This document shows positions 27,617 to 46,783 of a DNA stretch of 64,000 bases, one piece after another (the stretch's first letter is position 1; each line of letters opens with the position of its first letter). The stretch comes from an uncultured Pseudomonadales bacterium. GTDB lineage: Bacteria; Pseudomonadota; Gammaproteobacteria; Pseudomonadales; Azotimanducaceae. The notes below the pieces were generated by a model that saw only the letters and a program-made list of their open reading frames with translations, had not been told where the DNA came from and ran no database searches. A program made the position numbers and the translations under genes. The stretch spans positions 793,271 through 857,270 of the forward strand of contig CALSMJ010000001.1 of the NCBI GenBank assembly GCA_943787425.1, read 5' to 3'.

Positions 27617-28531
27617 GTGAAACTTGCTGTTACCGCCTGGGATCTCAGCAATGTTGAGGCCCTACAACGGATTCCCGACCAAGCGGCAAAAGCCGAAGCC
27701 ATGGGCTTTGAAGGCTTTTGGTTGCCCGAAAATCATTTTGCAGGCCCCGCTGCGCTGAGCGCGCCGCTGATTTTATTGGCGGCCGCGGCGGCTCGGACCC
27801 ATACCATTGACCTTGGCACCACGTCGCTTGTTTTGCCGATCCGGCATCCGGTGAGTGTCGCTGAAGAAGTCGCGATGCTGGACCAAATCGCCCAAGGCCG
27901 ACTGATTCTGGGCCTCGGACGCGGGTTCAGCGAAGATTTGTTCGAGGTCTTCGGGGTGGATCCTCGCCAAAAACGCGCCTTGTTTAAACAGTCCTTAAGC
28001 CAAATGCTGTCAATTTGGTCTGGGGAGGCGATTCATCACAAGGATGATCGCGCGCTATACCTTTCCCCAAGGCCTTATCAAAGTCCGCATCCCAGGCTTT
28101 GGATCGCAGCCTTCGGGCCCCTGGCGCTGAAGCAAGCCGCGGCATTTGGCTGCCCTTACCTCGCCTCGCCCATGGAAACCTTTGCTGAGCTGACCCAAAA
28201 CCTTGCACAGTATCGAGCCGCTCTTGAAGCCGCAGATCAAGTGCAGCCCGCAGTCGTGCCCGTTATGCGAACGATCTTTATTACCGAAGACACCGCATTG
28301 GCGACGGCAGTGAGCGAACAATTAAGGCAAGAAAGCCGTCGCGCGGCCTCCCAAGATCAGCCCGATCAGCCCGCCTTCATTGTTGGCCCTGCAACCTTTG
28401 TTGAAGAGACGCTGGCGCGCTATTCAGAGGACTTAGGGGTTAACTATTTGATCGCCCGAGGCCGGATCAAAGGCATTACCGAGGCGCAACAGCTCGCCTC
28501 CCACGCGCAGCTGATCACCCTTTATCGCTAA
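27617..28531 (+). CDS. LLM-class (luciferase-like) flavin-dependent oxidoreductase
   Basis: GTG start. AEAMGFEGFWLPENHF and LGLGRG are typical luciferase-like monooxygenase segments. Confidence 0.75.
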   Translation: MKLAVTAWDLSNVEALQRIPDQAAKAEAMGFEGFWLPENHFAGPAALSAPLILLAAAAARTHTIDLGTTSLVLPIRHPVSVAEEVAMLDQIAQGRLILGLGRGFSEDLFEVFGVDPRQKRALFKQSLSQMLSIWSGEAIHHKDDRALYLSPRPYQSPHPRLWIAAFGPLALKQAAAFGCPYLASPMETFAELTQNLAQYRAALEAADQVQPAVVPVMRTIFITEDTALATAVSEQLRQESRRAASQDQPDQPAFIVGPATFVEETLARYSEDLGVNYLIARGRIKGITEAQQLASHAQLITLYR

Positions 28532-31607: not shown

Positions 31608-33098
31608 ATGCCTTGGATTTTCTTAACGCTTCTCATCTTCAGCGCAAACTCGACCAATGCGGAACCGGTCTCGATCCTCAACCTACTTTACAACACGGAT
31701 GATCTGACTTTCTTGCAAAATAACCCCCAAGAAGCAGCCTCAAACTCGACAACCGCACTCTCTCAAGATCAAGCCAGAAGCCTTGCCGCCGATCTAAATG
31801 CAAGCCTTGTCCGCGATAATCCCGAAGACCCAATTTATCTCGCCAAGCGACTTGCGAATGTTGGCGTGCTCCAAACTTATGCAGGCGATCTAATCGCTGG
31901 CGATCAATCTTTGCGGGCGGCACTGTCGCAGTTCAATCAAAACGGCGGTTTGTTCGACCCCCGATTACCCCCACTGCTCTCAGCCATCGGCATCAACGGC
32001 TTTCTGCGCAAGGACTATGACACTGCAGAGGATCACTTTCGATGGAGCCAGAACATTCAACACAGAAGCCTTGGCTTGTTTGCGGCCGAGCAATCGACCA
32101 ACCTCAATTGGCTGACGCGCACCTACCTCAGTACCGGCCAGACCGACGCGGCGGACACCGCGCAGCGATACTTACTGCGCATTGCTGAACACGTCCTGCC
32201 AGCCGGCAGTCTAGCGCTTAGCAACATTAAAATTAGTCATTGCGCGGGTACCTCGGCCAGCGAGCGCAAGCACCATCTCACCCGTTTGCCGAAGACCTGG
32301 ATCGTCTGCTCAGACAAACGTTATTCAATGATTCGATCGAACTACTCGATCAAGCGATTCTGGAGATCACCGCAGCCGAGGGGCCCTATTCCGCCAAGTT
32401 GATCGGCGCGCTGGAAACGAAATCTCAGGTTTACAGCTGGCAAGCGGTCGCAGTCGATCGCTCGCAAGAGCAAGCCTCTGGAGCAAATCCTAACCATTCT
32501 GCAGAATCAGCCCGTGGTCGACTCCCGAAGCACTGTCAAACGCGTGGTTCGCCCTAGCCGATGGTTATATCTTGACGGGCAATAAAAAAGCGAAGACGGC
32601 CTACCGCGCCGCATGGCTTGCGGCCAATCCCGCGCCAGCCATCGACCCGGACGCAGCCCTCGTCGCCGAGGCCGACCCAGCAGCCGACGGCTCAGACCCA
32701 GACGAGCGATCCAGAGCCGGGTGATCGTCGTCATCGACCCCGTTCTGCTCTGGCCCGACGCCTATAAACCCATTTACTTTAGCTGCCGTGGTCGATTCCG
32801 AGGCGCCATCGGATACCCAGTATGCCGTGCACTTGCAGTTTAGAATCTCGACCGAGGGTCGCCCAAAGCGAATCAAAGTGCTCAGCGAAGAACGTGCCCC
32901 ATCGCGAGGTCCGCTGGACCCGAACCTTGATCCTTAACAGTCGCTACCGGCCCGCCTTGCGCAACGGTGTGCCCGAGGAAGTTGCGTTACTCGCTCCGCC
33001 AGCCCTTCATTCCTCGGTCCGCGCCGGCACCAACTGCCGCCGACGCATCGCCCGCACCCGTCCCGGACGCTTTCGACAACCCCTCTCTGAGTGTGTAA
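31608..33098 (+). pseudogene. Paralog of the preceding gene (signal peptide, helical repeats, TonB-C-like end), broken by multiple frameshifts
   Basis: Protein-like reading switches frames repeatedly. Frame of 31608 runs to ~32235. It continues as ...AEDLDRLLRQTLFNDSIELLDQAILEITAAEGPYSAKL..., then LEQILTILQNQPVVDS..., then ALADGYILTGNKKAKTAYRAAWLAAN.... The last pieces are YAVHLQFRISTEGRPKRIKVLSEE, ILNSRYRPALRNGVPEEV, and then a stop at 33096-33098. Confidence 0.45.
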
Positions 33099-33144: not shown

Positions 33145-33945
33145 CTACTCGCCCACACCGGTTATAAACACCCGCAGTTGCGCCGCGAGCCCTTTGCACG
33201 CGGCATTACCCGGTCGAGCCAAGATCGGAATGGGCAACACAAGGCCCGCCAAATAACTCGTGCCATTCGCGTCTGCGCTGATTTGCCCGGAAGCGCTCAG
33301 ATTCTTCAAGTCCCAAATCGAGGCTTCATAAGAGGCATCTTGTTCCCAATAGCTCATACCAAAGCAGCCGCCGCCAAAGGTGCTCACCGCACAACTCATC
33401 GACCCGCCTTTGTCGACCGTCACCGTATCGCCCTCGATCCAGGCCAAATAGCGAATACTCGATTGATCGATTTGCGCCTGCACCCCGGCTTCAGCAAACA
33501 AACGAGAAAGGTCGCTGGCATTGGTCGGCGCCGTGCGCGCTTCAAACCACGGATACAAATCATCCTTAAACTGATCTTCCGACACCAGCCGGATCGGATT
33601 GCTGCCTTGCCTTAATATATCCGCCAAACAATCGGTAAAACTTTCTTCGGTTTCACGATCGTTATACGTCGCGCGACCAAGAATCACCATTGCTTCACCG
33701 TCACCCAACACGGCATCGGTTTGACGGGACTGTTCAACTCGGGTTGTCGCACAGGCGCCGAGCTGCAGTAATAGAGCGGCGACAACAATACGGTACGTAC
33801 CCAAACCGCGCCACGCAGCAATCTTAAAACAAGTCGTCCACGCGACGCCGAAACACGATCCTTTCGATGCGGGCTCACCCACGGCCTCCACCTTTCCAAA
33901 CGGTTTCCAGTGAAACCGCCTGTTACATAATCGGTTTTGGGTCAT
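33145..33945 (-). CDS. Hypothetical lipoprotein
   Basis: Lipobox LLLQLGAC. The ATG at 33945 forms an ATGA overlap with the stop of the upstream gene but leaves ~48 aa before the signal peptide. A TTG near 33806 would give a canonical MGTYRIVVAALLLQLGAC leader. Confidence 0.55.
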   Translation of the reverse strand: MTQNRLCNRRFHWKPFGKVEAVGEPASKGSCFGVAWTTCFKIAAWRGLGTYRIVVAALLLQLGACATTRVEQSRQTDAVLGDGEAMVILGRATYNDRETEESFTDCLADILRQGSNPIRLVSEDQFKDDLYPWFEARTAPTNASDLSRLFAEAGVQAQIDQSSIRYLAWIEGDTVTVDKGGSMSCAVSTFGGGCFGMSYWEQDASYEASIWDLKNLSASGQISADANGTSYLAGLVLPIPILARPGNAACKGLAAQLRVFITGVGE

Positions 33946-34616
33946 TCTTGACTCCAATTGAATTCTAACCAAGTCTGGACATTGCGCTGCTTCGGCCACT
34001 CCAGCGCAACCCGCGCGCCGGCATCCCGAATCGCTTCAACCGACGCGGCGTTGAGCGCGTCGGTTGGCTGAAACCCGCCGCCCTCGTTTTTGCCGTAGCC
34101 GACCACCACCCAGGTATCCAGAACCGTCCCGTCCGAGCCCATCAGCTCAAGCTGGTACTTGGTCGATGCGGAGAAAAATTTCAATCCTGACAATTCTGGT
34201 GGCAGAAATGCGTATTCAAGTAGCGTTAGCCTTACAAACCCGTCCGGGCAACGCTCACCTGTGGCAAGCCCCGCAGTGCTCGGCCCACACGCTGGTGCCG
34301 CCAGCGGCCAAACTTTTTCGAACAGCGAATCAATCAAGGTCTCAAAAAATGCATTCTGAAGGGCCCCTAATTCAATCGTCCAATCACCGCCCCCTCTCGG
34401 GAGCTTTTCTCGATGAATCTGGGTGCTAAATTCAGGTGGTCGGATGAAGCCGATTGAGACCGGAAAGGGCTCGATGAGGGGCGTTGGGATCCGACCCGAT
34501 ACCGTCAGGGAATGCGTGCAGCTTCCCAATACGACGCACAGCACACTCAAACTGGCGACCCTTGAAGCCCATCGGAGGCACCGCCTTTCGAATCGATCGA
34601 TTTCCATACTCTGCAT
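33942..34616 (-). CDS. Hypothetical lipoprotein
   Basis: Signal peptide with lipobox (SLSVLCVVLGSC). It is divergent from the 34926 operon. Confidence 0.6.
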   Translation of the reverse strand: MQSMEIDRFERRCLRWASRVASLSVLCVVLGSCTHSLTVSGRIPTPLIEPFPVSIGFIRPPEFSTQIHREKLPRGGGDWTIELGALQNAFFETLIDSLFEKVWPLAAPACGPSTAGLATGERCPDGFVRLTLLEYAFLPPELSGLKFFSASTKYQLELMGSDGTVLDTWVVVGYGKNEGGGFQPTDALNAASVEAIRDAGARVALEWPKQRNVQTWLEFNWSQE

Positions 34617-34925: not shown

Positions 34926-35402
34926 ATGCGCCTTGCGTTACTGACACTCATTGGCCTTATTTTGATCAGCGGCTGCCAATCACCCAGTACGCCGCCTGCA
35001 ACGCCGCCCAGCATGCCGAGCCCGTCGTCACCCAGTTCGCCCAGCATGCCGAGCCCGCCATCACCCAGTTCGCCCAGCATGCCAAGCCCGTCATCATCCA
35101 GCTCGCCCAGCATGCCAAGCCCGTCATCCTCCAGCTCGCCCAGCATGCCGAGCCCGTCATCACCCAGTTCGCCCAGCATGCCAAGCCCGTCATCATCCAG
35201 TTCGCCCAGCATGCCAAGCCCGTCATCACCCAGTTCGCCCAGCATGCCAAGCCCGTCATCATCCAGCTCGCCCAGCATGCCGAGCCCGTCATCATCCAGT
35301 TCGCCCAGCATGCCAAGCCCGTCATCATCCAGCTCGCCCAGCATGCCAAGCCCGTCATCATCCAGCTCGCCCAGCATGCCGAGCCCGCCATCCACCCAGT
35401 GA
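34926..35402 (+). CDS. Lipoprotein leader fused to a Ser/Pro-rich repeat (PSMPSPSSPSS x ~12); either a short lipoprotein or the out-of-frame 5' part of the next gene
   Basis: MRLALLTLIGLILISGCQS is a textbook lipoprotein signal with lipobox ISGC. This frame stops at 35400-35402, and that TGA overlaps an ATG in the downstream frame (TGATG). Confidence 0.45.
   Translation: MRLALLTLIGLILISGCQSPSTPPATPPSMPSPSSPSSPSMPSPPSPSSPSMPSPSSSSSPSMPSPSSSSSPSMPSPSSPSSPSMPSPSSSSSPSMPSPSSPSSPSMPSPSSSSSPSMPSPSSSSSPSMPSPSSSSSPSMPSPSSSSSPSMPSPPSTQ
35007..35400. repeat. Tandem array of ~12 copies of a 33-bp unit (cccagcatgccRagcccgtcRtcaYccagYtcg)
   Basis: Counted directly in the sequence. The array is free of stops in three forward and two reverse frames. 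Confidence 0.95.
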
Positions 35403-36661
35403 TGCTGGCAAAAGCCAAGGCTGATGGCGAATCTGGGCCGGCTGGCGCAACCGGTGCACCAGCGGATCCAACTCAAGATCAAACGGGCGCCGCCGGTGAA
35501 AAACTAACGCAGGTCGGGAAGACCTTAACCCGTGCCAGCGGTGATTCAGATACCGCAGAGCGCGGCGAAAGTGATAACAACGACGCCCAGACAGGTTCGG
35601 GGGCTGCAGCTGAACCTTGGGATCCGTTGTTACCCGAACCGCTCGATAATGCCAGTTCCGACGGAGAACGATTTGACGAGTCGCTTGCCGCAGATTCAGC
35701 TGAGTCCTTTGAAAGCAGCGACAGCCAGTCGGGCAGCGCTGCTCAAAATGGCGGCGACGCCGCAGCGTCTGCAGGCCAAGCCGCGTCGATCGATGGCGCG
35801 CAAACCACATCAAGCACCGGGCGCGCCGAAGGCGGACAATCGTCCGAGACCGCGCCATCTGGTAAGGATGGTTCAGAGCCAGGGTCGACACCGATTGCCG
35901 CCGGTGACAACGATCCGGACCGCCAAGCGCTCGCTGACGCGCTGGCTCGCGCTGGAATTAGTCTCACCAAAGCCGGCGAATTACTGAGCCAAAGCGGGTC
36001 CGATGGCGCAAGCAGTGACGACGTCAATTCAGCCCTCAGCGACGCGAGTATTGCGGTTTTAATTCTTGAGCAACAGCTCAATCAAATGGGGTCGGACGGG
36101 GTCGCCGGTGACCGGGTCAGCGAGGCGGCGAGACTGGTCATTTTAGCCAATGAGGCCCTGTCTGAGGCGACCCTTGCGACCGACGGCAGCGCGCCGTTGC
36201 CGACAATCTCTGGACGTTCATCGCAAACAGCCGAAGATCCGCGCATCGCCGAGCTCGATGCCGAACTTGAGCGCTCAATTGTTGTTTTTGAAACCGACAT
36301 TCAGGATGCACGCAACGCGGTCGCCGCCGAATTGGCGGGCAGCGCAACTGACGCCGCGGGCGGCCCCTCAATGGTGGATTTGGCTGAAGGCTTAGCGCAG
36401 TCTGCCCCGGTCAGCGTGACCGAAGGACCAGATGAGGCGTCAGAGGCGCCATCCGCCGAGGTAGGAGCGCCTCAAGGCCGCGCGCCCGGCAAGACCGAAC
36501 AGCAAACTGCTGGCCCCGCACCGATTCCAGAGGATATTCCCAGCCCCCAAGGCGATGACATTGTTGCAAAACAATTACGGGAGGCCGCTGCAGCCGAACA
36601 AGACCCAGCGCTGCGAGCAAAACTCTGGGAAGAATATAAACGGTATAAGCAAGGACTCTGA
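35402..36661 (+). CDS. Acidic low-complexity protein with a short conserved-looking C-terminal helix (DDIVAKQLREAAAAEQDPALRAKLWEEYKRYKQGL)
   Basis: This is the long open frame (track ORF 34739-36661). Sequence upstream of the repeats in this frame looks non-coding and lacks a signal peptide. ATG at 35402 is the first plausible start if the gene is separate. Confidence 0.5.
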   Translation: MLAKAKADGESGPAGATGAPADPTQDQTGAAGEKLTQVGKTLTRASGDSDTAERGESDNNDAQTGSGAAAEPWDPLLPEPLDNASSDGERFDESLAADSAESFESSDSQSGSAAQNGGDAAASAGQAASIDGAQTTSSTGRAEGGQSSETAPSGKDGSEPGSTPIAAGDNDPDRQALADALARAGISLTKAGELLSQSGSDGASSDDVNSALSDASIAVLILEQQLNQMGSDGVAGDRVSEAARLVILANEALSEATLATDGSAPLPTISGRSSQTAEDPRIAELDAELERSIVVFETDIQDARNAVAAELAGSATDAAGGPSMVDLAEGLAQSAPVSVTEGPDEASEAPSAEVGAPQGRAPGKTEQQTAGPAPIPEDIPSPQGDDIVAKQLREAAAAEQDPALRAKLWEEYKRYKQGL

Positions 36662-36664
36662 CCT

Positions 36665-37891
36665 GTGACTGAACCCCGCACTCGACGCGCTCTAACAACC
36701 CTCGTCCAGCTCTGGCTTATCATGACCTTCGCAACCCTTGCGGGCTGCGCGACAACGCAGGTCATAACGGCCAATTCGAAACCACCGGTACAACTGCAGT
36801 CAGTGATTTCAGATGCAGCGCGCGTGGATGTCATGATACTGCCGTTTGCGCCTAACTTGGCATCATTGCCTGAGTCAGATGATGATGACATCCCGGTGTC
36901 GGCCGAGGTGCGCCGAGCCGAGTCCCGTTATCTTGCTTTTCATCTGAAAGATACGCTGGAGCGAACCGGGAACTGGGGCATCGTTCGGGTGGTACCCAGC
37001 GCAGCACGACATCACCCATTACTGGTTTCTGGCAAGATTTTAGCGTCCGATGGCGAGCGTCTGGCTGTTTTGGTTACCGCAACCGATGCCAGCGGGCGCG
37101 TGTGGCTGACGCGGACCTATGAAGACAATGCGAGTAAGTACGCCTATCAATCGATCAAAGAAGACCCCTTTCAAGACCTCTACAACAACATTGCCAATGA
37201 TTTGGTTCTGCAATATCAAGCGCGCGCGGTCGATGACATCCGCAATATCCGGCAAATCGCCGAACTTGCGTTTGCTGCGGATCTGGCGCCTGATGCCTTT
37301 TCTGGCTATCTCACAGAAAATCGGGACGGCACAACCTCGGTGGTCCAAGTACCCGCCGCCGGCGATACTATTCTGCAACGCGTTGCGCGAATTCGGGCGC
37401 AGGATGACCTGCTCGTCGACACCTTAGATGATTACTACTTTAAATTTTACCGGGATGTTAAGCCTTCCTACGATGAATGGCGGTACGCGACCTATGACGA
37501 GGCGGTGAGGCTGCGGCAACTGAACAAACAAGCTCGCAACCGGCTTTTAACGGGCGCCGCGCTCATTGCCGGCGGCATTTACGCCGGCTCTCAAAGCAAC
37601 ACCTGGGCCGCTGACGCGGCTGCAGCAGGCGCCGTCGTCGGTGGTATCGCGGCCGTCAAAGGCGGTCTAGATCGACGCAAGCAAACCGAGATCCATGAGC
37701 AAGCGCTCCAAGAGCTTACCCAATCTTTAGGCCGCGAGATCACGCCGAACGTCCTGGATATCGAAGGCGCAACCGTTGAGCTAACAGGCAGCGCAGAACA
37801 ACAGTACGCCCAATGGCGTTCGATGTTACAAGCACTGTATGAAGCAGAACGAGGTCTAGGCCAAGCGCCCATAACGCCTCAGACCCGATGA
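36665..37891 (+). CDS. Hypothetical lipoprotein with a Gly/Ala-rich C-terminal segment
   Basis: GTG start 3 nt after the previous stop. Lipobox FATLAGC. Glycine-zipper-like LLTGAALIAGGIYAG...AAGAVVGGIAAVKGG. Confidence 0.65.
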   Translation: MTEPRTRRALTTLVQLWLIMTFATLAGCATTQVITANSKPPVQLQSVISDAARVDVMILPFAPNLASLPESDDDDIPVSAEVRRAESRYLAFHLKDTLERTGNWGIVRVVPSAARHHPLLVSGKILASDGERLAVLVTATDASGRVWLTRTYEDNASKYAYQSIKEDPFQDLYNNIANDLVLQYQARAVDDIRNIRQIAELAFAADLAPDAFSGYLTENRDGTTSVVQVPAAGDTILQRVARIRAQDDLLVDTLDDYYFKFYRDVKPSYDEWRYATYDEAVRLRQLNKQARNRLLTGAALIAGGIYAGSQSNTWAADAAAAGAVVGGIAAVKGGLDRRKQTEIHEQALQELTQSLGREITPNVLDIEGATVELTGSAEQQYAQWRSMLQALYEAERGLGQAPITPQTR

Positions 37892-37901
37892 TTAAACGAT
37901 C

Positions 37902-40154
37902 ATGACAACGATCCAACCCGGCACGCTGCTCGCTGATCGCTTTAGGGTTATTGCGGCCGTGCCAACACCGCCGGCTCAGCACCCACGATTTCGGGCGACG
38001 AATTTATCAACTGCCAGTGACGTCATGATCACCGTCGTGCCCCGCTCGGCCGGTGATCTAGCAAGCCTTGCGGCCATCAGCGATCGACTGAAAAAGCTCA
38101 GCCACCCCGATATTCAGGCGCATATCGGTTTTTGGGAAGATGCTCATGCAGGCTACCTTGTTGACGCGCCGCCCGTAACGCCGGCGAGCGACCCGCTGAG
38201 CAAACCACTCAAAGCTGCCCAACTCAGGCGCTTGGTCGCCGCGCTGGGCTATGCCGAGGCGCTGGGCTTTCATCAATCGGGGTTTGATCTGGCCTGGCTC
38301 ACGCCAACGGATCAGCAGGGCTTTATGATTCAACACCTGGGCTGGCCACGCTGGGCACTGACCTCAGCGCCACACAATCATCCCGAGGCAACTGGGCTTG
38401 TGAACTTTGGCGATTGGGCCTATCAATTTTGTACCAACGCACCCTGGCAGGGCCTTGACCAGTTGCAGGCGCAACCACCGTTGCCGGCAGGCTTAACGCC
38501 CCTCATTACGGCGGTGCGACAAGGCACGACCCGCTCCTTTGGCGAGCTTTTGACTTTGATGGACACCGGCGAGGCAGACGCGGCATCCGGTTTGGTCGGG
38601 ACCGGCCCTTTGCAGGCTGCAAACTTTGAGATCGCAAGCCCGGCAGCATCCGCGCCCGCTGCCGCCGTCGTGTCATCAGAATCATCGGCCACGCTGTCTG
38701 ATCGCACACCCGGCGCAGTGCTTGCCAAATCCGGCTGGGAGCCCAAAACCCTGTTAACCGGTTTTGGACTCGTTATTCTTGCCGGCTTTGTCTTTTGGGT
38801 GCTGCCAGATTTAGTCCGCACTCAGAACCAGGCTCAACCCCAACTGAACCCAACCCCGGCCACCGCATCCGAGCCTGCTGGCGTCACGAAGCAGGCGCCC
38901 ATCGCCGACGCCAAAGCCAAAATCCTGGCAGAACAGGCTGCCGAGGTGGCCGAAACGTTTCTGCGGAAACTCATCACACTAGAAGATTTGGGCCTTGCGC
39001 TTTGGGATCCAACCGCCCTCGCTCAAATCAATCAAGCAGCCATGGCAGCTGATGACGCCTTTCGTGCGGGCGACGCGCAAGCCGCGCTTGCGCGCTATAC
39101 TCAGCTACTGGCCAGCGTTACCGCACTTGATGCAGGCCTGCCAGATCGTCGCGCCGAGAATCTGACCCAAGCTCAAAACGCCTTGTCAGACAACAACAGC
39201 GTCGATGCGCTCAAGTTCTGGGCAATTGCGGCCCGATTGAATCCGCAGAAGACCGACATCCAGACAACTTGGCAAGCCGTTCAAAAAATTCCCGCCATTG
39301 AAGCCCTCATGAGCGAAGCCGACCTGGCAGAACGTGCTGGCAAAATCGAAGCTGCCGAGGACATCTTGCGCGAGGCGACTGCGCTGTTCCCGAACTGGAC
39401 GCCCGCACGGGTTGCCTATGAGAGAATGCAACAGGCCGTGCAGCAAAAACAGTTTCAGACCAGCATGACGCTCGGGTTTGCGGCCCTTGCAGAGGAATCC
39501 TATGAATCGGCAATCAGCGCATTTGAGCGAGCCGCCCGCATCGACCCAACGGCGAGCGCCGCCCGAGACGGTCTCGAGCAAGTTCGCCAAGCGCAGCTCA
39601 GACAACAAATCAAAGGCTTTTTTGATGAGGCCCAACAGGCCGAAGCCGCCGGTAACTGGCGCAACGCGCAAACTGCCTATGAGACTGCCCGCACGCTGGC
39701 GCCCAACTTAAGCGATCTTACGGTTCGCATCGAGGCCATGGACACCCGGATCGAGCTCGCTGAAGCATTGACCCAGATCCTTGCGGACCCAGCAAGACTC
39801 CTCGCCGATGCCGAATTCAAGAACGCCAGAGATCTTGCCATTACGATCAGTCAATTACCCCCACCCGTTGGCGATCTGCAAGCACGCCTGCCCATTCTCA
39901 CGCGTATGCTGTCTCATGCGCGTCGCGAGCTGACGCTGACGCTGACCTCGGATGCGCTAACCACCGTCACGGTCCTGCGGTTAGGCAAAGAGGGTCGTTT
40001 GGGCCAAATAACGCAAACCAAGCTGACCTTGTTTCCGGGTCGTTATGTCGTCACCGGATCCAGGACCGGCTATAAAGATGTGCGCCATGAGCTGACCCTT
40101 ACGGGCGAGACCCTCAATCATGCCCTAAACGTCGTTTGCGATGAGCCAATCTAA
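37902..40154 (+). CDS. Membrane protein: N-terminal degenerate Ser/Thr kinase-like domain (pseudokinase), one TM helix, periplasmic TPR-like repeats, C-terminal PEGA-like domain
   Basis: A kinase-like N-lobe is present (LLADRFRVIAAV..., LSHPDIQAHIGFWEDAHAGYLVDAPP). It lacks the GxGxxG loop, the VAIK lysine (VMITVV) and HRDLKPxN (replaced by ALGFHQSGFDLAWL). TM helix LLTGFGLVILAGFVFWVL. C-terminal LFPGRYVVTGSRTGYKDVRHELTL. Confidence 0.6.
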   Translation: MTTIQPGTLLADRFRVIAAVPTPPAQHPRFRATNLSTASDVMITVVPRSAGDLASLAAISDRLKKLSHPDIQAHIGFWEDAHAGYLVDAPPVTPASDPLSKPLKAAQLRRLVAALGYAEALGFHQSGFDLAWLTPTDQQGFMIQHLGWPRWALTSAPHNHPEATGLVNFGDWAYQFCTNAPWQGLDQLQAQPPLPAGLTPLITAVRQGTTRSFGELLTLMDTGEADAASGLVGTGPLQAANFEIASPAASAPAAAVVSSESSATLSDRTPGAVLAKSGWEPKTLLTGFGLVILAGFVFWVLPDLVRTQNQAQPQLNPTPATASEPAGVTKQAPIADAKAKILAEQAAEVAETFLRKLITLEDLGLALWDPTALAQINQAAMAADDAFRAGDAQAALARYTQLLASVTALDAGLPDRRAENLTQAQNALSDNNSVDALKFWAIAARLNPQKTDIQTTWQAVQKIPAIEALMSEADLAERAGKIEAAEDILREATALFPNWTPARVAYERMQQAVQQKQFQTSMTLGFAALAEESYESAISAFERAARIDPTASAARDGLEQVRQAQLRQQIKGFFDEAQQAEAAGNWRNAQTAYETARTLAPNLSDLTVRIEAMDTRIELAEALTQILADPARLLADAEFKNARDLAITISQLPPPVGDLQARLPILTRMLSHARRELTLTLTSDALTTVTVLRLGKEGRLGQITQTKLTLFPGRYVVTGSRTGYKDVRHELTLTGETLNHALNVVCDEPI

Positions 40155-42244
40155 TGCCACCCATTGACCCCTTGCAAGACACCCTCGAGCCCACGCCTTT
40201 TGAGGCGCCAAAACAGGCAGTTGATATCAAAGCCCGACGACTCAGCCCGAGGCGCGTGGTGACCCTTTTGCTTGCCGCTTTCATTGCGATGACCGCTTGG
40301 CACCTGTTTACCGCCAAGGCCGTCTTAATCGTCTTCACGCCGCCAGCTGAATCCGAATCCGTCTCAGGTTGGTTAACCCTACCGCTGGGCGAACGCTATC
40401 TGGTCCGGCCCGGTGATCTCACAGTTGAGGCCGACGCCAAAGGCTACTACCCGATCGACGCGCGTTTAACCGTATCGTTCGATCCTGATCAGCGTTTTGC
40501 ACTGGCTTTCGAAAAACTGCCCGGGCACCTTCGCCTCACCACCGGCGATATACCCGCTGAGGTCGAGATCGATGGCGAGTCCGTTGGCACCACCCCGCTC
40601 ACGGTTTCAGATCTGAGCGCCGGCGAGCACCGCGTGTCGATCACTGCCGACTGGTATGTTCCGATCCAAACCACCGTGGAGATCCTTGGCTTGGACCAGT
40701 CTCAGGATTTGGCGTTGGCCTTGACACCAGCTTGGGGCACTGTGAGCCTATCCAGCCAACCCACCGAGGCGCGCCTTATTGCCGATGGGGAAGATCTCGG
40801 GCCGCTGCCGACAACGGTAAGATTATTAGAGGGTACGCGAACGCTTTTGATCTCAAAAGCGGGGTATCAATCTCAGCGCCTCGATTTAGCGATCAAACGT
40901 GGTACGTCCATCACGGTGCCCGAAGTCACCCTGGCACCTGCGAACGGCGCGGTGACCCTGAACAGCGCACCCGCCGGCGCTTTGGTCACAGCAAATGGGG
41001 TGTATCTAGGGGTCACCCCGCTTCAGCATTCGTTGTCCCCAAATCGCACCTATGATTTTCTAGTCAGCAAGTCTGGCTTTGAACCGGTGACCCGGTCATT
41101 GCAGCTTGCCCCCACTGAAACGGTCACGCTGAACCTAACCCTTGCGCCCCGATTGGGAACCGTAACCTTTGATATTGCTCCGAAGCAGGCATCGATTCGC
41201 ATCAACGGGGTACTGCAAAGCGCCAAAAATACCACGATGCGGCTGCCCACAACGCCCCAAACCATTGAAATCAGTCAGGACGGCTTCGCAACGATCACAC
41301 AAACCATCACCCCGGATGCTGATTTCCCCAAAACCCTGAAGATCAATCTGCTGACCCTGGCAGAAGCGGAACTGGCTCAATTCCCAGAGACGATCGAGGT
41401 CAAGGGCGGCTATCGCTTGCAGCGCATTCTACCGGCGACCATCGAACTCGGCGCGGCGCGGCGAGACCGCGGCGGACGCAGCAATGAAATACAGCGCTTG
41501 ATCACCCTCACTCAGCCTTATTACCTGGGCACCACCGAAGTCACCAATGCCCAATATCAGGCCTTTGATGCCGGCCATAATCCCGGGGTTTTAGGACGAA
41601 CCCTGCTCACAGCGCAGGAGCGACCGGTCGTTGGCGTCAGCTGGGATCAGGCAGTGGCCTTCTGCAACTGGTTGAGCGACCAAGAAGGTTTGCCGCGGGC
41701 CTATACCTCGGTTAACGGGCATTATGAGCTGATCACACCCAGAACCTTAGGGTATCGTTTGCCGACAGAAGCTGAGTGGTCTCGAGCCGGACGGTATGCC
41801 GATATTGCGGCCGGTGCGCAAGGCGACATCACCAGCCGTTCCCGCTTTGCCTGGGGTGATGATCTGCCACCGCCAAGCGATTTCGCCAATTTAGCCGATG
41901 AAACCGCAACGGGCTTCGCGCCCAATATCATCCCGAACTTTCGAGATCGCTTTCGAGGGCCAGCACCAGCAGGACATTTCAAGGCCAATGCCTTGGGCCT
42001 GTTTGATCTAACCGGCAATGTTTCTGAGTGGGTGCATGACCGATTTAGCACCAACCGCACGCCCAGCGCCGCGACCGATTGGACGGGGCCTAACGAGGGC
42101 GCTGTTCGGGTTATTCGCGGCTCGAGTTATCTGTCCGGCAGCTTTAGCACCTTGCGCTGGGCTTATCGGGATTCAGGCCTTGAAGGCCGGCAAGACGTCG
42201 GCTTCCGGCTGGCAAAAAATGCCGCCCCAGGCGCCGTCGAATGA
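40154..42244 (+). CDS. Membrane-anchored protein with ~5 PEGA repeats and a C-terminal FGE-sulfatase (SUMF1-like) domain lacking the catalytic cysteines
   Basis: TAATG overlap with the previous gene. PEGA-like units include VEIDGESVGTTPL...GEHRVSITADWY, ARLIADGEDLGPLP...ISKAGYQ and VTANGVYLGVTPL...VSKSGFEP. FGE domain: YYLGTTEVTNAQYQAF...RPVVGVSWDQAVAFCNWLS...GYRLPTEAEWSRAGR...GNVSEWVHD...VIRGSSYLSGSFSTLRWAYRD. Confidence 0.8.
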   Translation: MPPIDPLQDTLEPTPFEAPKQAVDIKARRLSPRRVVTLLLAAFIAMTAWHLFTAKAVLIVFTPPAESESVSGWLTLPLGERYLVRPGDLTVEADAKGYYPIDARLTVSFDPDQRFALAFEKLPGHLRLTTGDIPAEVEIDGESVGTTPLTVSDLSAGEHRVSITADWYVPIQTTVEILGLDQSQDLALALTPAWGTVSLSSQPTEARLIADGEDLGPLPTTVRLLEGTRTLLISKAGYQSQRLDLAIKRGTSITVPEVTLAPANGAVTLNSAPAGALVTANGVYLGVTPLQHSLSPNRTYDFLVSKSGFEPVTRSLQLAPTETVTLNLTLAPRLGTVTFDIAPKQASIRINGVLQSAKNTTMRLPTTPQTIEISQDGFATITQTITPDADFPKTLKINLLTLAEAELAQFPETIEVKGGYRLQRILPATIELGAARRDRGGRSNEIQRLITLTQPYYLGTTEVTNAQYQAFDAGHNPGVLGRTLLTAQERPVVGVSWDQAVAFCNWLSDQEGLPRAYTSVNGHYELITPRTLGYRLPTEAEWSRAGRYADIAAGAQGDITSRSRFAWGDDLPPPSDFANLADETATGFAPNIIPNFRDRFRGPAPAGHFKANALGLFDLTGNVSEWVHDRFSTNRTPSAATDWTGPNEGAVRVIRGSSYLSGSFSTLRWAYRDSGLEGRQDVGFRLAKNAAPGAVE

Positions 42245-42300
42245 TGGCGATGGCGATGCGGTCTGATAAGCTTAAATCGATTCAATGTCGAGCCTCTTGC

Positions 42301-42609
42301 ATGCGTGCCAACCTTACAATGCTGTTTGCTGTTTGCGTTCTTCTGCCGGCCCAAGTTGTCGCCGCGAGTCCAGCGACATCAAGCCCTGCCAGTGCAGCGC
42401 CCAACCCAGCGCCGGCTGCTGACCCCACTCCGCAAGCCTTAAACACAACCGCTGCGCCCAGCCAGTCCAGCGCGCTGGACGCCGCGCAACAGCCGGTGCC
42501 TGACGACGCGACGCTAACCGCGCCTGGCTTGGGCCGCGCTTTTGAGGCCTTTCAGCCCAGTGAGGCAATCAGTGCTGACAACGCCGTGCCCTTTCCAACC
42601 AATATCTAA
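42301..42609 (+). CDS. Small secreted Ala/Pro/Ser-rich protein
   Basis: Signal peptide MRANLTMLFAVCVLLPAQVVAA, then a low-complexity region. ATG at 42301 is preferred to 42241. Confidence 0.5.
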   Translation: MRANLTMLFAVCVLLPAQVVAASPATSSPASAAPNPAPAADPTPQALNTTAAPSQSSALDAAQQPVPDDATLTAPGLGRAFEAFQPSEAISADNAVPFPTNI

Positions 42610-42624
42610 GGCCTTAACCTATTC

Positions 42625-43416
42625 ATGAAACAATTTAGCTCAGATTTTATCTATCAATTGATGTCTCTCATCGTGGCGATTTTATTGGTTCACGCAATTT
42701 ACGTTGCCGTCATTCGGCCAAACGCCAATAGCCTTTTAGAAATTCAAGCCGAGCTTATCAATGCTGACCCCAGTTACGTGCCGGAGCGCAGCGCTTATAT
42801 CATTGTAAAAGACCTCGAGCAGGAGGCCTGCTTTATCTTAATGCTATGGGCCATGGCACTTATGGGCATCAAGGCACGCGACAATCATCGAGAACGGGCC
42901 CTGTTTGAAATAGACCTTTTACCCCGCAATCAATCCAACAGTATTTTGCCTGAAGATACGCGGGACTATGCTCGCCCAATAGAAGCCTTAAGCGCGGACG
43001 CGCAACAGCGCCTGTTGCCGCGCGCGTTACTGGCCGCGCTGCACCGCTTTCGCGCCACGGGCAATATTCAGGATGTTGCGCACACCATTCGTGCCACCTG
43101 CGAGAGCGAAAGCGAGCACTTGGATTCGGAACTATCAATGATTCGCTACATCGCCTGGGCAATTCCTTCGATTGGCTTTTTAGGCACCGTTCGCGGCATT
43201 GGACAAGCCCTTGGTCAAGCGCATCAAGCCGCACAAGGCGACATTGCTGGCGTCACCCAAAGCTTGGGCGTGGCCTTTAATTCGACCTTCGTCGCCCTGT
43301 TAATCAGTATTCTCATCATGTTCTTGATGCATCAATTGCAATTGGCGCAAGAGCGCACCACCCAAGATGCTGAGCAATATTGTGATAATCGCCTTTTACG
43401 TTACCTGCAGGTTTAG
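42625..43416 (+). CDS. MotA/TolQ/ExbB-family proton channel protein
   Basis: C-terminal signature region IRYIAWAIPSIGFLGTVRGIGQALG...LGVAFNSTFVALLISILIMFL matches the MotA_ExbB pattern (LGLLGTVxG ... AL.tT..GL). Additional N-terminal TM helices are present. Confidence 0.8.
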   Translation: MKQFSSDFIYQLMSLIVAILLVHAIYVAVIRPNANSLLEIQAELINADPSYVPERSAYIIVKDLEQEACFILMLWAMALMGIKARDNHRERALFEIDLLPRNQSNSILPEDTRDYARPIEALSADAQQRLLPRALLAALHRFRATGNIQDVAHTIRATCESESEHLDSELSMIRYIAWAIPSIGFLGTVRGIGQALGQAHQAAQGDIAGVTQSLGVAFNSTFVALLISILIMFLMHQLQLAQERTTQDAEQYCDNRLLRYLQV

Positions 43417-43419
43417 ACC

Positions 43420-44691
43420 GTGACCCTTGCATTTCTTGAACTCAATGATCTTGAGTTACGGCTCTGGCAAGCCGATCACGCGGTTGTCTCAGAACCCGGT
43501 TGGGCCTTGCTGACGGAGCCGCCGAAGGTTGGCCAACAGGCATTGGATCAGGCCAGACTGCAACCTCGATTGGCCAATTGTCAGTTTTGGCACACCCTCA
43601 GTACGGATCCTATGCCCGGCGCGACCCCGATCGCTCGACATCATGCGGACTTGGCCTATTTACAACTGACCGCCTTTAAACATCTCGCACCGAGCAGCGA
43701 GTTTGTTGTCAGCGTGCCCGGACATTTTGATCGAGCTGATCTGAGCTTACTGCTGGGGCTGATGGATGCTGCAAGCATCACCGTCAAAGCGCTGATTGAC
43801 CCTGGGGTACTCCTTGCCAGCAGGACCCCTAGCACGACGCCTAACCTGCTCTATCTGGATGTTGGTCTGCATGCCGTGACGATAACGGTAATTCAACAAG
43901 GCGCACAGTCGCAGCGCAGCAGCTGCCGCATCGCCCATAACGCGGGCTATCTGAACCTCATTGACCGCCTGGCCAATTATGCCGCCAGTGCGCTGGTTCG
44001 AAAATCTCGGTTTGATCCACTGCAACATGCCAGCACCGAGCAACAACTCTTTCAGCAGCTCTTGCAACCGAATCATCCCCTTGCCAGTTTGGGCCAAGGC
44101 CTGATTAGCTTGCATCATGAGGGCGTCCAATATGACGTGCAGCTGCCTGAGACCGATCTGCGCGCAGCCGCCGCGGAGCTTGTACCCGATGTTGTGAAAG
44201 CGATTCAGGCCGCCTCAAACGGCCCCGCTGAGGTTTTGTTGAGCCATCGCGCCCAGCGGCTCCCAGGACTCATCGACTCCCTATCCCTGATCCCAGGCCT
44301 TGTGACCCAGCGGCTCACGAGCGCCAGCCTGCTCGAGGCTTTTACCGCTTTGGCGCCAGAACTGACGGCCAACAGCACGCACAATCAACTCATCTACAGT
44401 TTGGCCAACCCGGCGCAAGCAACCGCGACCGCCGCTGAGCAATTAAGCACCGGCCACTCGATTACGCATATTGTGCAGCAGGGCATCGCCGTCGAGATCA
44501 AAGCCTTTTCGGAAACCACCGCAGACGACTTTGGCCTGATCCTTGACACGGTAACCGGTCAATGGCAGCTGACGCCAGGCAACCTGAGCATTGCCCTCAA
44601 TGGGCAATCCGTGACGGAACCGTGTTTGCTGAAAGCGGGCGATGCCATTTTAGCGGGTAACCAAACCTTTCTATTCATCCAGGTGCGATAA
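43420..44691 (+). CDS. Cytoplasmic protein with a degenerate Hsp70/actin-like ATPase fold and a possible FHA-like C-terminus
   Basis: GTG start 3 nt after the channel gene. [40 protein letters not shown] parallels Hsp70 [55 protein letters not shown] parallels DLGGGTFDVSI, but the phosphate-binding glycines and aspartates are lost. The C-terminus is ...[32 protein letters not shown]. Confidence 0.45.
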   Translation: [423 protein letters not shown]

Positions 44692-44696
44692 GCCGC

Positions 44697-45785
44697 GTGG
44701 CCAAACGACGCGAAACGAATATTTTCAGCCTGTCTTTTTTAGATATCATGTCGTGCGGTTTTGGCGCGGTGATCCTAGTTTACATCACCATCAATCATGG
44801 CACCCTCTCAAGCGGTATCCAGACCGATCCCGAACGATTCGCCGAGGTCAAAAAGATCGAAATCGAAATTCTTGCAGAGCAGGAAAACCAAGTCATCCTG
44901 CGCAACAGCCTTGCGCTTGTAGACGATGCGGTTCTAACAACGGAACAAAGCATCCGAGACAAACTCAAAGCCATAGAGGCCCTAACCCAGCAGTTGCTCG
45001 AAGCTCAAAGCGCGCAGAGCCTGGATACCGACGGGATTGAAGCGCTTAAAACAGCGTTGGTCAAACTCCAGGCCGAGCGCGACACCCTGACCCTCAGTGT
45101 CGCCGAGGCCGAAGGCAATGATCTGCGAGCGATGGTCGGCGAAGGCGATCGCCAGTATCTAACCGGCTTGAACTTGGGCGGCCAGCATATTTTGCTGTTA
45201 TTTGATGTGTCGGGCAGCATGCTCGATGAAACCCTTGTTAATATCATTCGAAGGCGAAATCTGCCTGAAGCCGAGCAACGCGCGTCGAAAAAATGGCAAC
45301 GCGGCTTGCGCACCGTGGATTGGATCACTGCCAATCTGCCTAGGGATGTTCAATTTCAGATTATTGCATTTTCGAGCACCGCGCGGAGCGCCCTGCCCGA
45401 GACCAATGGTGAGTGGCTTCAAACCAGCGACACCGAAACCTTGGACGCCAGTCTGGCGGCGCTACAAGCGCTCACCCCCGGCGGCGGCAGCAACCTGCAT
45501 GCGGCGTTTACCGCCGCTGCCGCCCTTGACCCACAACCGGACAATATTTTCTTGATCACGGACGGCCTACCCACTCAAGGCGCAATGCCAGTAAAAGCAG
45601 GTCTTGTCTCCGCCAAAGACCGCTTAAACCTTTTTCAAAACGCCATGAGCGTGGTCAACCTTTCAACGCCCATCAACGTCATTTTATTCCCCATGGAAGG
45701 TGACCCCATTGCCAGTCCCTCTTTTTGGCGGCTGGCACAAATGACGGGCGGCGCATTCTTGTCACCCGCAAGGGACTGGCCATGA
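44697..45785 (+). CDS. ExbD/TolR-like single-pass anchor + coiled coil + vWA (MIDAS) domain protein
   Basis: N-terminus NIFSLSFLDIMSCGFGAVILVYIT has an Asp at the start of the TM helix, as in ExbD/TolR. A ~110-aa heptad-like region follows. MIDAS residues are DVSGS, GGGSN and ITDG. Confidence 0.8.
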   Translation: MAKRRETNIFSLSFLDIMSCGFGAVILVYITINHGTLSSGIQTDPERFAEVKKIEIEILAEQENQVILRNSLALVDDAVLTTEQSIRDKLKAIEALTQQLLEAQSAQSLDTDGIEALKTALVKLQAERDTLTLSVAEAEGNDLRAMVGEGDRQYLTGLNLGGQHILLLFDVSGSMLDETLVNIIRRRNLPEAEQRASKKWQRGLRTVDWITANLPRDVQFQIIAFSSTARSALPETNGEWLQTSDTETLDASLAALQALTPGGGSNLHAAFTAAAALDPQPDNIFLITDGLPTQGAMPVKAGLVSAKDRLNLFQNAMSVVNLSTPINVILFPMEGDPIASPSFWRLAQMTGGAFLSPARDWP

Positions 45786-46783
45786 GACGCAAGCTCCGCG
45801 AAGTTGAAGGCATGAGCCTCTCTTTTTTAGATGTCATCAGCTGCGGCTTTGGCGCCTTAATACTATTGTTGGTGCTCACCAAAGTTTATGACCCAGTGGT
45901 CTTTGATCCATCGATAACCGATCTCGACGGTTATCTCAAGGAGCTCGAGGAAACCCTGGCGACGCTGAAAGGTGAGACCCGAGTGCTCAATCGAAACCTG
46001 CTGCGTCGCGAAGACCTCAAAACGGATCAAGTGGCTCAACTGACGCGCATTCAAAGTGAGCTCGCAAGCCTTGAAAGCACCAACCGCCAGACGCAATTGG
46101 AGGCCGAGGCCCAAGCGGCCATTCAAGCAAAATTGGCCGACGCCAAACAGTCCCTCACCGAAGAGATGCAGGCGCTACTCAAGGGCTATCAAAAATCAAT
46201 CGATGATACCGTGATCGGCGGGATCCCAGTGGACAGCGAATACGTCATATTCATCATCGACACCTCGGGCAGCATGTTCAGTTACGCCTGGCCCATGGTG
46301 GTACAGAAGCTGGCGGAGACCTTGGAGGTCTATCCCAATTTGAAAGGCATCCAAGTGATGAATGATATGGGCCAGTACATGTTCGCCCAGTACGCAGGCC
46401 AATGGATCCCGGACACCCCAGCTCGGCGGCAGGCGATTATTAATCGGCTGCGGGACTGGAATGTTTTCAGCAACTCAAGCCCAGTTGAAGGTATCACCAA
46501 GGCCATTGCGACCTTCTATCGACCAGGCCGAAAAATCTCACTCTATGTATTTGGCGATGAATTTACCGGGCGCTCGATTCAGCAGGTCGTCGACACGGTC
46601 GACCGAATTAATCGCCGGGACGAGCAAGGCAACCGGCTGGTCCGGATTCATGGGGTGGGCTTCCCTGTACAGTTCGCAAATCCGCCACAGTATCAGGAGA
46701 CTGGCATCAAATTCGCCATTCTAATGCGCACCTTGTGTGCAGCCAATGACGGCACCTTTGTGGCCTTAAACCGGTTTCGTTGA
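45782..46783 (+). CDS. Second ExbD/TolR-like anchor + coiled coil + vWA domain protein (paralog of the previous gene)
   Basis: ATGA overlap with the previous gene. N-terminus MSLSFLDVISCGFGALILLLVL, then a coiled-coil region. MIDAS-like DTSGS, SNSSP and FGDEF. Confidence 0.8.
   Translation: MRRKLREVEGMSLSFLDVISCGFGALILLLVLTKVYDPVVFDPSITDLDGYLKELEETLATLKGETRVLNRNLLRREDLKTDQVAQLTRIQSELASLESTNRQTQLEAEAQAAIQAKLADAKQSLTEEMQALLKGYQKSIDDTVIGGIPVDSEYVIFIIDTSGSMFSYAWPMVVQKLAETLEVYPNLKGIQVMNDMGQYMFAQYAGQWIPDTPARRQAIINRLRDWNVFSNSSPVEGITKAIATFYRPGRKISLYVFGDEFTGRSIQQVVDTVDRINRRDEQGNRLVRIHGVGFPVQFANPPQYQETGIKFAILMRTLCAANDGTFVALNRFR

Follow-up and report, generated by a model that had tools for sequence, protein, structure and literature searches.

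We analysed a window of 64,000 nt from contig CALSMJ010000001.1 of an uncultured Pseudomonadales bacterium. The window carries a gene cluster, initially noted at 34926-46783, that encodes a candidate proton-channel subunit and two membrane-anchored von Willebrand factor A (vWA) proteins and that may specify a trans-envelope machine. The region consists of continuous open reading frames (ORFs) on the + strand without internal stops, which we refer to as G1 to G10. Overlaps of 4 nt were found at G1/G2 (35399-35402), 1 nt at G4/G5 (TAATG, 40152), 4 nt at G5/G6 and 4 nt at G9/G10 (ATGA, 45782), and the gaps between the other ORFs were 3 nt (G2/G3), 10 nt (G3/G4), 15 nt (G6/G7, the widest of all), 3 nt (G7/G8) and 5 nt (G8/G9). 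All the junctions quoted in an earlier note on this DNA were present in the sequence, and the dense packing on the + strand that it described was borne out; its count of ten genes had to be reduced to nine, since G1 and G2 are one gene. The limits of the cluster were also revised, as the system is larger and reaches upstream to two lipoprotein genes (U1 and U2) and probably to a tetratricopeptide repeat (TPR) gene and an M48 protease gene. The GC content of the cluster (55-59%) is similar to that of the remainder of the window.

Products of the cluster genes

Relatives of the cluster were collected by a scan with the trans-pore-helix motif of G9/G10 over one genome per GTDB species, which gave more than 599 matches. 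The main locus set comprised 85 loci, that is the 80 best ones and 5 earlier ones, and a second scan, seeded with distant G10 relatives (33-39% identity), covered metagenomes.

G7 (42625..43416, + strand) encodes a protein of 263 aa that was assigned as a TolQ/ExbB/MotA-type proton-channel subunit on the basis of its match to PF01618 (E 8.6e-16). A single-sequence phmmer search of G7 against the PDB returned nothing, and the similarity to a solved structure was reached only with a family profile of 15 orthologues, which matched E. coli TolQ (8odt) with E 0.006 and aligned TM2-TM3. In this alignment the residues T188 and T221, invariant in the 15 orthologues, correspond to the Thr of the GTVWGI and ALIAT segments of TolQ. 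Homologues of G7 at about 70% identity number in the thousands. The Pfam match and the profile match to TolQ agree with the MotA/ExbB-type channel that had been proposed earlier for this locus.

The two vWA proteins are encoded by G9 (44697..45785, + strand) and its paralogue G10 (45782..46783, + strand). G9 is composed of a trans-pore helix with Asp16, a coiled coil, as indicated by profile matches of residues ~40-155 to coiled-coil proteins, and a vWA domain (VWA_2, E 8.8e-9). The same order of a trans-pore helix (with Asp17), a coiled coil (~48-134) and a vWA domain was assigned to G10, which had no match in Pfam. The AlphaFold2 (AF2) model of G10 showed a transmembrane (TM) helix, an 87-residue helix and an alpha/beta domain; because its predicted local distance difference test score (pLDDT) reached only 55, the model was left out of the fold search and the vWA homology was taken from hhalign, in which the G10 and G9 families aligned over 320 columns (probability 99.7%, E 1.1e-25) at a pairwise identity of about 20%. 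Common to both proteins are an invariant N-terminal helix S-x-S-F-L-D-x-x-x-C-G-F-G, the coiled coil and an invariant DxSxS...D metal ion-dependent adhesion site (MIDAS), formed by D170, S172, S174 and D289 in G9 (invariant in 21 orthologues) and by D160, S162, S164 and D259 in G10, which are invariant among its orthologues as well. The trans-pore helices FSLSFLDIMSCGFGAV and MSLSFLDVISCGFGAL contain no His, and their Asp residues do not vary (D16 in 21 orthologues of G9, D17 in 23 of G10). Thus, the earlier description of two vWA proteins with coiled coil and MIDAS was upheld, by Pfam for G9 and by comparison with the G9 family for G10. Searches of the ten cluster ORFs against Pfam and NCBIfam (E <= 0.01) revealed no ExbD, TolR, MotB, OmpA, TonB or TolA domain, just as the earlier note had stated for a TonB/TolA partner and an OmpA-like domain. 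Both G9 and G10 were present in all 85 loci, and G7 was located upstream in 77 of them, most of the others being ended by contig edges; wherever the flank was sufficient, G7 was positioned just upstream of G9/G10 in all loci but one.

Two further membrane proteins precede the channel gene. G4 (37902..40154, + strand) is predicted to consist of a pseudokinase domain (residues 1-~280), a TM helix at 282-307 located by a hydropathy scan, a periplasmic TPR array (TPR_2, E 2e-9) and, at the C-terminus, a beta domain with a possible likeness to PEGA. The window copy itself gave no Pkinase match, and its kinase motifs have been lost: the G-loop, the Lys of VAIK (changed to Thr), HRD (changed to HQS) and DFG (changed to HLG). 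PF00069 was matched by 6 of 9 long-form orthologues, with the best E of 3e-45, and all four kinase motifs were present in the orthologues from L033, L060 and L069. A short form of G4 of about 510 aa, lacking the kinase domain, occurs in most Halieaceae, and the long form is found elsewhere. Of the two domains that had been suggested for G4, the pseudokinase was therefore corroborated by the kinase matches of the orthologues and the lost motifs, whereas the PEGA assignment remained weak and unproven, as the alignment of the C-terminal domain with the first PEGA-like repeat of the G5 family was marginal (hhalign, E 0.009, probability 4.5%).

G5 (40154..42244, + strand) starts with an N-terminal TM anchor and has no lipobox. 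The anchor is followed by four PEGA repeats (Pfam PEGA, E 1.3e-38 in 4 stretches) and by a domain of the formylglycine-generating enzyme (FGE) or C-type-lectin-like fold (FGE-sulfatase, E 3.2e-36). Among solved structures G5 matched TvpA (E 1.9e-14), human FGE (~1e-12) and PorK (~1e-8), and its best NCBIfam match was GldK/PorK, at 84 bits against a cut-off of 350; a match to GldJ was also sub-threshold. In the alignment to the solved human FGE, the positions of the catalytic Cys336 and Cys341 are occupied in G5 by Ser and Thr. The FGE domain of G5 is thus predicted to be non-catalytic and to resemble the ligand-binding TvpA and PorK, which fits the cysteine-less FGE-PEGA protein described previously for this position.

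The cluster begins with a lipoprotein gene, G1+G2 (34926..36661, + strand; lipobox LISGC), which in the window is split by a frame change near 35400 into the G1 half (34926-35402, + strand) and the G2 half (35399-36661, + strand). In a dozen loci the G2 orthologue is one ORF whose product starts with a lipobox-bearing signal peptide and continues through a Ser/Pro-rich linker and an acidic low-complexity region to a C-terminal motif, which reads DIPSPQGDDIVAKQLREAAAAEQDPALRAKLWEEYKRYK in the window and DIPSGxDDDIVARQLREAA..DP.LR.KLW.EYRKYK as the family consensus; the last ~50 aa are 50-80% identical across phyla. The linker (PSMPSPSSSSS) is encoded by a tandem repeat at 35005..35400 (+ strand; 12 x 33 nt with 93% matches in Tandem Repeats Finder), which is open in two frames, PSMPSPSSSSS and AQHAKPVIIQL, with the frame change at its 3ʹ end. 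A metagenomic contig that is 97% identical to the window (L002) has approximately three fewer copies of the repeat and single-base indels exactly at the G1/G2 junction. Since the orthologues are single ORFs and the indels of L002 fall on the same spot, the TGATG at 35400 is a frameshift and not a site of translational coupling; it could be an assembly error, or it could be real, caused for instance by repeat-associated phase variation.

G3 (36665..37891, + strand) encodes a second lipoprotein of ~400 aa (lipobox LAGC) that has a C-terminal domain and, at ~295-335, a hydrophobic hairpin rich in Gly/Ala. It belongs to an unnamed family, for which Pfam, NCBIfam and the PDB gave no credible match, in the case of the PDB even with a 16-sequence profile. 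An alignment of 16 sequences from several phyla has 36 invariant columns, and the gene was found in 62 of the 85 loci. The hairpin (LLTGAALIAGGIYAGSQS...AAAAGAVVGGIAAVKGGL), in which the glycines are invariant, is similar to membrane hairpins of the glycine-zipper kind in small lipoproteins of the outer membrane, a likeness that no profile bore out. G6 (42241..42609, + strand) encodes a small secreted protein in which a signal peptide is followed by a disordered region and, at the extreme C-terminus, by the conserved motif F.PSE.IS.D..V.FP.[DN]I; in almost all of the main-clade loci examined, G5 and G7 are separated by a small ORF with this ending. The C-termini of G2 and G6 are both short motifs kept across phyla.

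The remaining gene, G8 (43420..44691, + strand), encodes a predicted cytoplasmic protein with an Hsp70-like nucleotide-binding domain and a truncated FHA-like C-terminal beta domain (~350-423). No Pfam family was matched, HSP70 included, and no substrate-binding domain was found. The fold was assigned from the AF2 model, which was built on a 39-sequence alignment and reached a pLDDT of 90; the top 50 Foldseek matches in the PDB were all Hsp70/DnaK/BiP structures, with E of ~1e-16. The phosphate loops of Hsp70 proteins have the consensus DxGTT and DxGGGT, and on inspection those of G8 read LELND and LDVGLH, with LDxxLH as the family consensus of the second loop. These observations substantiate the degenerate Hsp70-like protein that had been suggested from the same sequence. 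The C-terminal ~75 residues of G8 align with canonical FHA domains, and PF00498 was matched by 3 of 39 homologues (best E 2.4e-14); in the window copy, the GR...SRxH segment for phosphothreonine binding is missing. A regular-expression test for co-loss of the kinase motifs of G4 and the FHA motifs of G8 was too coarse to bring out a correlation. Several clades have no G8 at all, and G7 abuts G9 there (L086, L088, L092, L094, L098, L103, L108, L137, L143 and L144). With regard to the profile searches that the earlier note had recommended, these were run, and Pfam supported MotA_ExbB, VWA_2, FGE-sulfatase, PEGA and TPR.

Conservation, upstream genes and surroundings

In the 85 loci, the order G2-G3-G4-G5-(G6)-G7-(G8)-G9-G10 recurs wherever the contig is long enough. 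It was observed in Halieaceae (Congregibacter, Halioglobus and Seongchinamella), Microbulbifer, Exilibacterium, Pseudomaricurvus and Thalassomonas, and further in Acidobacteriota, in Desulfobacterales (Desulfobacterota) and in a metagenome-assembled genome (MAG) of Myxococcales (Myxococcota). The closest genome among the matches listed is a MAG of Candidatus Azotimanducaceae (HTCC2089), with a G10 identity of 83%. Across many genera the identity is approximately 70% for G7 and 68% for G10, and the G10 family forms 305 clusters at 50% identity (E <= 1e-30). A distant low-GC clade, in which the identity of G10 drops to 33-39%, has a compact arrangement G2-G3-G4-G5-G7-G9-G10 and lacks G8, U1, U2 and M48; L086, L092 and L098, with a GC content of ~0.43-0.44, are examples of such loci. 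The part kept in every clade sampled is G2-G3-G4-G5-G7-G9-G10, with G6 in most main-clade loci, to which individual clades add G8, the kinase domain, U1, U2, M48 or the TPR protein as accessories. The neighbourhood comparison proposed in the earlier note thus showed co-conservation in the same order in more than 100 loci of several phyla.

Three loci showed additional features. In L003 (2945-9949) toxin-antitoxin-like modules (FitA-like RHH/PIN, nucleotidyltransferase and DUF433/DUF5615) lie within the cluster, together with a gene for a 1110-aa AAA_11/AAA_12 helicase with DUF559, and the insertions are placed between G5/G6 and G7/G8. In L077 (11045-17252, the Myxococcales MAG) the G2-G3-G4-G5 block is inverted and stands downstream of G10 rather than upstream of G7. 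Behind the operon of L086 come an ssb-like gene and five consecutive genes that resemble pilMNOPQ, identities judged by ORF sizes and N-termini only.

Upstream of the cluster, two genes on the opposite strand encode predicted lipoproteins of unnamed families, neither of which had a match in Pfam or NCBIfam. U1 (33942..34616, - strand; lipobox VLGSC) is homologous to the gene located directly 3ʹ of G10 in 51 of the 85 loci, and a lipobox-like motif was present in 45 of 49 orthologues. U2 (33145..33999, - strand; lipobox LQLGAC), whose true start is probably inside this ORF, is 71% identical to its homologue in L001 and 33-44% identical to the second gene 3ʹ of G10 in 46 of the 85 loci; 37 of 45 orthologues have a lipobox-like motif. 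Homologues of U1 and U2 hence follow G10 directly in about 50 loci, and in the window and its closest relatives they are located upstream on the opposite strand. Together with the lipoboxes of G2 and G3, those of U1 and U2 bear out the earlier estimate of at least two lipoproteins.

The M48 gene (28528..30192, - strand) encodes a BepA/LoiP-like zinc metalloprotease with a signal peptide and an HEIMH motif (Peptidase_M48, E 9.9e-25; the NCBIfam BepA/LoiP matches were below cut-off). It is 31-33% identical over ~440 aa to a same-strand gene that directly follows U2 in 40 loci, 39 of which retain HExxH, and is likely an accessory member of the system. The TPR gene (31608..32616, + strand) has a weak TPR_12 match and an apparent frame change near 32400-32540. 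Clustering of flanking ORFs identified its counterpart as a ~480-aa TPR family upstream of G2 in 23 loci, and the gene probably belongs to the system. The tblastn alignment with the TPR orthologue of L001 carries on in a second frame, and the C-terminal ~145 codons of the window gene have no counterpart. This second disrupted gene near G1/G2 suggests an indel-prone assembly or local gene decay.

Outside these genes the neighbours are of a housekeeping type (UvrA, molybdopterin oxidoreductase, NUDIX, YdjC, an MFS transporter and an acyl-CoA synthetase), and the tests of flanking ORFs brought up no mobility genes, in line with the earlier note. Promoter and terminator scans of the window did not rise above chance level, and no tRNA or Rfam family was found in it. 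Directly downstream of the cluster and convergent with G10 lies a gene for a 296-aa Ion_trans protein (46796-47686, - strand; E 4.5e-44) with a single voltage-gated-channel-like domain, which occupies the same position in the closest relatives L002, L006 and L007. Further downstream, at 48652-50064 (- strand), a 470-aa protein is encoded with a sub-threshold match to DUF4139 (28.6 bits against a cut-off of 31.8). As this gene is syntenic in 8 related loci and absent elsewhere, it probably reflects lineage synteny and lies outside the system.

A putative motor and the alternative explanations

We consider it somewhat more probable than even that the locus encodes one trans-envelope machine, built around a 5:2 motor of the MotAB/ExbBD/TolQR type driven by the proton-motive force, which would transmit force to an outer-membrane lipoprotein assembly. 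By analogy with ExbBD and TolQR, a pentamer of G7 would surround a G9-G10 heterodimer, with the Asp-bearing N-terminal helix of each protein inside, and proton flow via the Asp/Thr site would turn or lever the G9-G10 axle. AlphaFold3 5:2 models of tolQ-like proteins with pairs of trans-pore-helix (TPH)-vWA proteins, in which the Asp pair is located within the Thr ring, have been published (PMC12204202). In the periplasm, the axle is predicted to continue as a coiled coil of ~90-110 residues tipped by vWA domains with an intact MIDAS. The vWA heads may act against a periplasmic scaffold of G4 (TPR) and G5 (PEGA and lectin-like FGE), both anchored in the inner membrane. The outer-membrane lipoprotein partners would be G2 and G3 in all sampled clades, with U1/U2 added in some; domain content and conserved synteny point to this partnership of scaffold and lipoproteins. 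More speculatively, the MIDAS sites could bind the acidic C-terminal peptides of G2 and/or G6, and the capture of these peptides could pull or reposition the outer-membrane lipoprotein assembly in a mechanical task similar to that of Tol-Pal.

For the cytoplasmic side, the earlier note had left the choice between a signalling and a scaffold arm. The scaffold is the better reading: G8 and the G4 pseudokinase probably form a scaffold or a brake and not a signalling relay, because both the kinase and the FHA domain are degenerate here; they are also missing from most relatives.

Several points weigh against the motor reading as a whole. The 5:2 stoichiometry, the G9-G10 heterodimer and the rotation are all proposed by analogy, and the binding of G2/G6 peptides by the MIDAS is speculative. 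The AF2 model of G10 is of low confidence, as it was derived from a shallow alignment (sequences of 68-98% identity plus G9). The outer-membrane sorting of the lipoproteins is predicted from the +2 rule of E. coli, according to which the window copies of G2, G3, U1 and U2, without Asp at +2, would leave the inner membrane, and this rule possibly does not apply to these taxa. As two genes of the system appear to be frameshifted, the copy in the window may be partly decayed or the assembly error-prone. None of G8, U1, U2, M48 and the kinase domain can be essential to the basic mechanism, as each of them is lacking in some clades. Finally, one locus, L005 (1121-1394), runs from G5 through a G6-like ORF to G8 with no G7 between them. 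L005 is the sole locus of the first 85 that, given enough upstream flank, has no G7 at this position.

Alternatively, the locus could encode a secretion, adhesion or surface-motility apparatus, in which the motor drives a periplasmic ring of G5, as in GldLM-GldK/N, or a vWA adhesin, as in Agl-Glt/CglB. We regard this as unlikely, though it is the best of the alternatives. [quoted passage not shown] A gliding role has also been speculated for related vWA transducers (PMC12204202). However, G7 is of the TolQ type and not GldL/GldM, and G5 is a TM-anchored protein with PEGA repeats, not a lipoprotein, and falls far short of the GldK cut-off. Apart from the sub-threshold GldK/GldJ matches of G5, no component of the T9SS was found, with no match to GldL, GldM or GldN in the cluster genes, and the neighbourhood contains no conserved secretin, usher, cargo or adhesin gene. 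Furthermore, a coiled-coil tether of ~100 residues holds the vWA heads at the inner membrane, which makes it unlikely that they reach the cell surface.

A little less probable is an envelope sensor, in which signals, mechanical or from ligands, would pass from the vWA, lectin and TPR domains of the periplasm via the G4 kinase to the FHA domain of G8, in the manner of the threonine phosphorylation by which PpkA-Fha1-TagR controls the type 6 secretion system (T6SS). That pathway involves a kinase, an FHA protein, an FGE-like protein, a vWA protein and a lipoprotein, and the resemblance to the present set of genes is at the level of domains. Some G4 orthologues are intact Ser/Thr kinases and some G8 orthologues carry canonical FHA domains, as shown by the E values given above. 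Nevertheless, the window copies retain neither the kinase motifs nor the phosphothreonine-binding segment, most G4 orthologues are of the ~510-aa form without the kinase domain, and several clades have no G8. No conserved phosphatase, transcription factor or effector gene was found nearby, and the components retained by every sampled clade are those of the motor, the scaffold and the lipoproteins and not those of a signalling arm. There are also no T6SS genes at the locus, and the vWA proteins differ from those of the T6SS in having a proton-binding trans-pore helix coupled to a TolQ-like channel.

Zorya-type anti-phage defence, with a MotAB-like motor that senses perturbation of the envelope by phage, was rejected on the basis of the PADLOC result and the genomic context, and we consider it very improbable. 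Like the motor proposed here, ZorAB is a 5:2 motor of the MotAB family outside the flagellar, Ton and Tol systems, and G7 gave a weak match to the ZorA model, at 18.9 bits (E 1.5e-4) over ~95 of 505 positions; with its 263 aa, G7 is far shorter. PADLOC detected no ZorB, ZorC or ZorD, and no other model beyond coiled-coil noise. The toxin-antitoxin modules and the helicase-DUF559 gene inside the cluster of L003 would suit a defence function, and so would the patchy spread over phyla, between which G10 is ~55% identical, suggesting horizontal transfer. On the other hand, there is no conserved nuclease, NTPase or other effector gene and no OmpA-like peptidoglycan-binding domain in G9/G10, the surroundings are of a housekeeping type with flanks conserved in related genomes, and strong purifying selection acts on G7 and G10, unlike in typical defence islands. 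Least probable of all is that two or more unrelated operons, a motor/vWA pair and a lipoprotein/PEGA/FGE module, are merely adjacent: this would accommodate the inverted G2-G5 block of L077, the variable position and strand of U1/U2 and M48 between clades and the fact that only tolQ and vWA genes are named in PMC12204202, yet G2-G3-G4-G5 is linked to G7-G9-G10 in every sampled clade, the most distant included, the blocks are still neighbours in L077, and the junctions in the window overlap or are at most 15 nt wide.

Returning to the motor reading, we put forward, tentatively and at less than even confidence, a more specific version of it. The cluster would represent a distinct functional class of proton-driven envelope machine, to be placed beside flagellar stators, Ton, Tol-Pal, Agl-Glt, T9SS and Zorya, in which a heterodimeric MIDAS-vWA "grappling hook" axle captures the G2/G6 peptides within a TPR/PEGA-lectin scaffold and performs an undescribed outer-membrane or cell-wall task; this class would occur widely in marine Gammaproteobacteria and have reached Acidobacteriota, Desulfobacterota and Myxococcota by transfer. 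Should the vWA domains of the axle indeed transmit force, the family would have its first motor in which the effector domain is carried directly by the proton-binding dimer. The system is conserved in abundant marine Gammaproteobacteria of the OM60/NOR5, HTCC2089 and OM182 types as well as in several other phyla, and its culturable carriers include Congregibacter variabilis, Microbulbifer agarilyticus, Thalassomonas, Seongchinamella and Pseudohalioglobus.

Comparison with known systems

Each of the known families of 5:2 ion-driven motors powers an important process of the envelope, be it the rotation of flagella, uptake that depends on TonB, constriction of the outer membrane, gliding or type 9 secretion, or the sensing of phage. 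Judged from its sequence, the cluster would be kin to these motors, and features that define Tol-Pal, Ton, MotAB, GldLM/GldK and Zorya are missing from it. The likeness to Tol-Pal lies in the channel, as TolQ is the closest solved relative of G7, and in a trans-envelope layout with a periplasmic TPR protein, outer-membrane lipoproteins and a presumed delivery of force. No TolR, TolA, TolB or Pal/OmpA-like domain was found in the cluster, and G7 scored 35.6 bits with the TolQ model, against a cut-off of 221. There is no separate transducer of the TolA type here, because the axle itself bears the vWA effector domains. In the case of Ton, no match to PF02472 or PF03544 was obtained, and the ExbB model gave 23 bits against a cut-off of 135. 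As for the MotAB stator, G9/G10 have no OmpA domain, and no flagellar family was present among the neighbouring ORFs tested. The Bat/MoxR-vWA operons of the aerotolerance type also combine TM-anchored vWA proteins with TPR proteins, but this likeness is again one of domains: the cluster has no MoxR AAA+ ATPase or DUF58 gene, and its vWA proteins differ by their proton-binding trans-pore helix and their coupling to a TolQ-like channel.

The closest precedent is an in silico report of a TolQ-like protein with a heterologous pair of TPH-vWA proteins, seeded with Idiomarina loihiensis (PMC12204202; Mol Biol Evol 2025;42:msaf138, Fig. 4c-d). This family is found mainly in Proteobacteria; no function was given for it, and the text mentions no co-conserved genes, the words 'sulfatase' and 'kinase' being absent from it. 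In both cases a tolQ-like gene adjoins two different genes for TM-anchored vWA proteins, there is no tolR, exbD or motB, a conserved Asp is present in the TM helix, the SHLS motif (TonB/TolA) is absent, and the channel has conserved threonines (T188 and T221 in G7). Every sequence feature listed in that paper is thus present here, which suggests that the G7-G9-G10 core belongs to the same family, as judged from the feature list. In contrast, the co-conserved G2-G6, G8, U1/U2 and M48 genes found in our study are absent from the text of the paper. Literature searches for the accessory gene combination yielded nothing beyond this report and the unrelated vWA-MoxR conflict systems (PMC7159879).

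The earlier note had not recognised the architecture as that of any known system. With the profile assignments supported and the genes co-conserved, this stands insofar as no experimentally characterised system matches; the TolQ-like/vWA core, on the other hand, had already appeared in a computational report of June 2025, where it was likewise interpreted as a 5:2 complex (PMC12204202). The motor core is accordingly one that the 2025 literature has flagged, and the extended parts list is newly defined here: a three-gene computational note now becomes a conserved part of seven to eight genes with clade-specific accessories, in which short peptide motifs are candidate ligands of the MIDAS.

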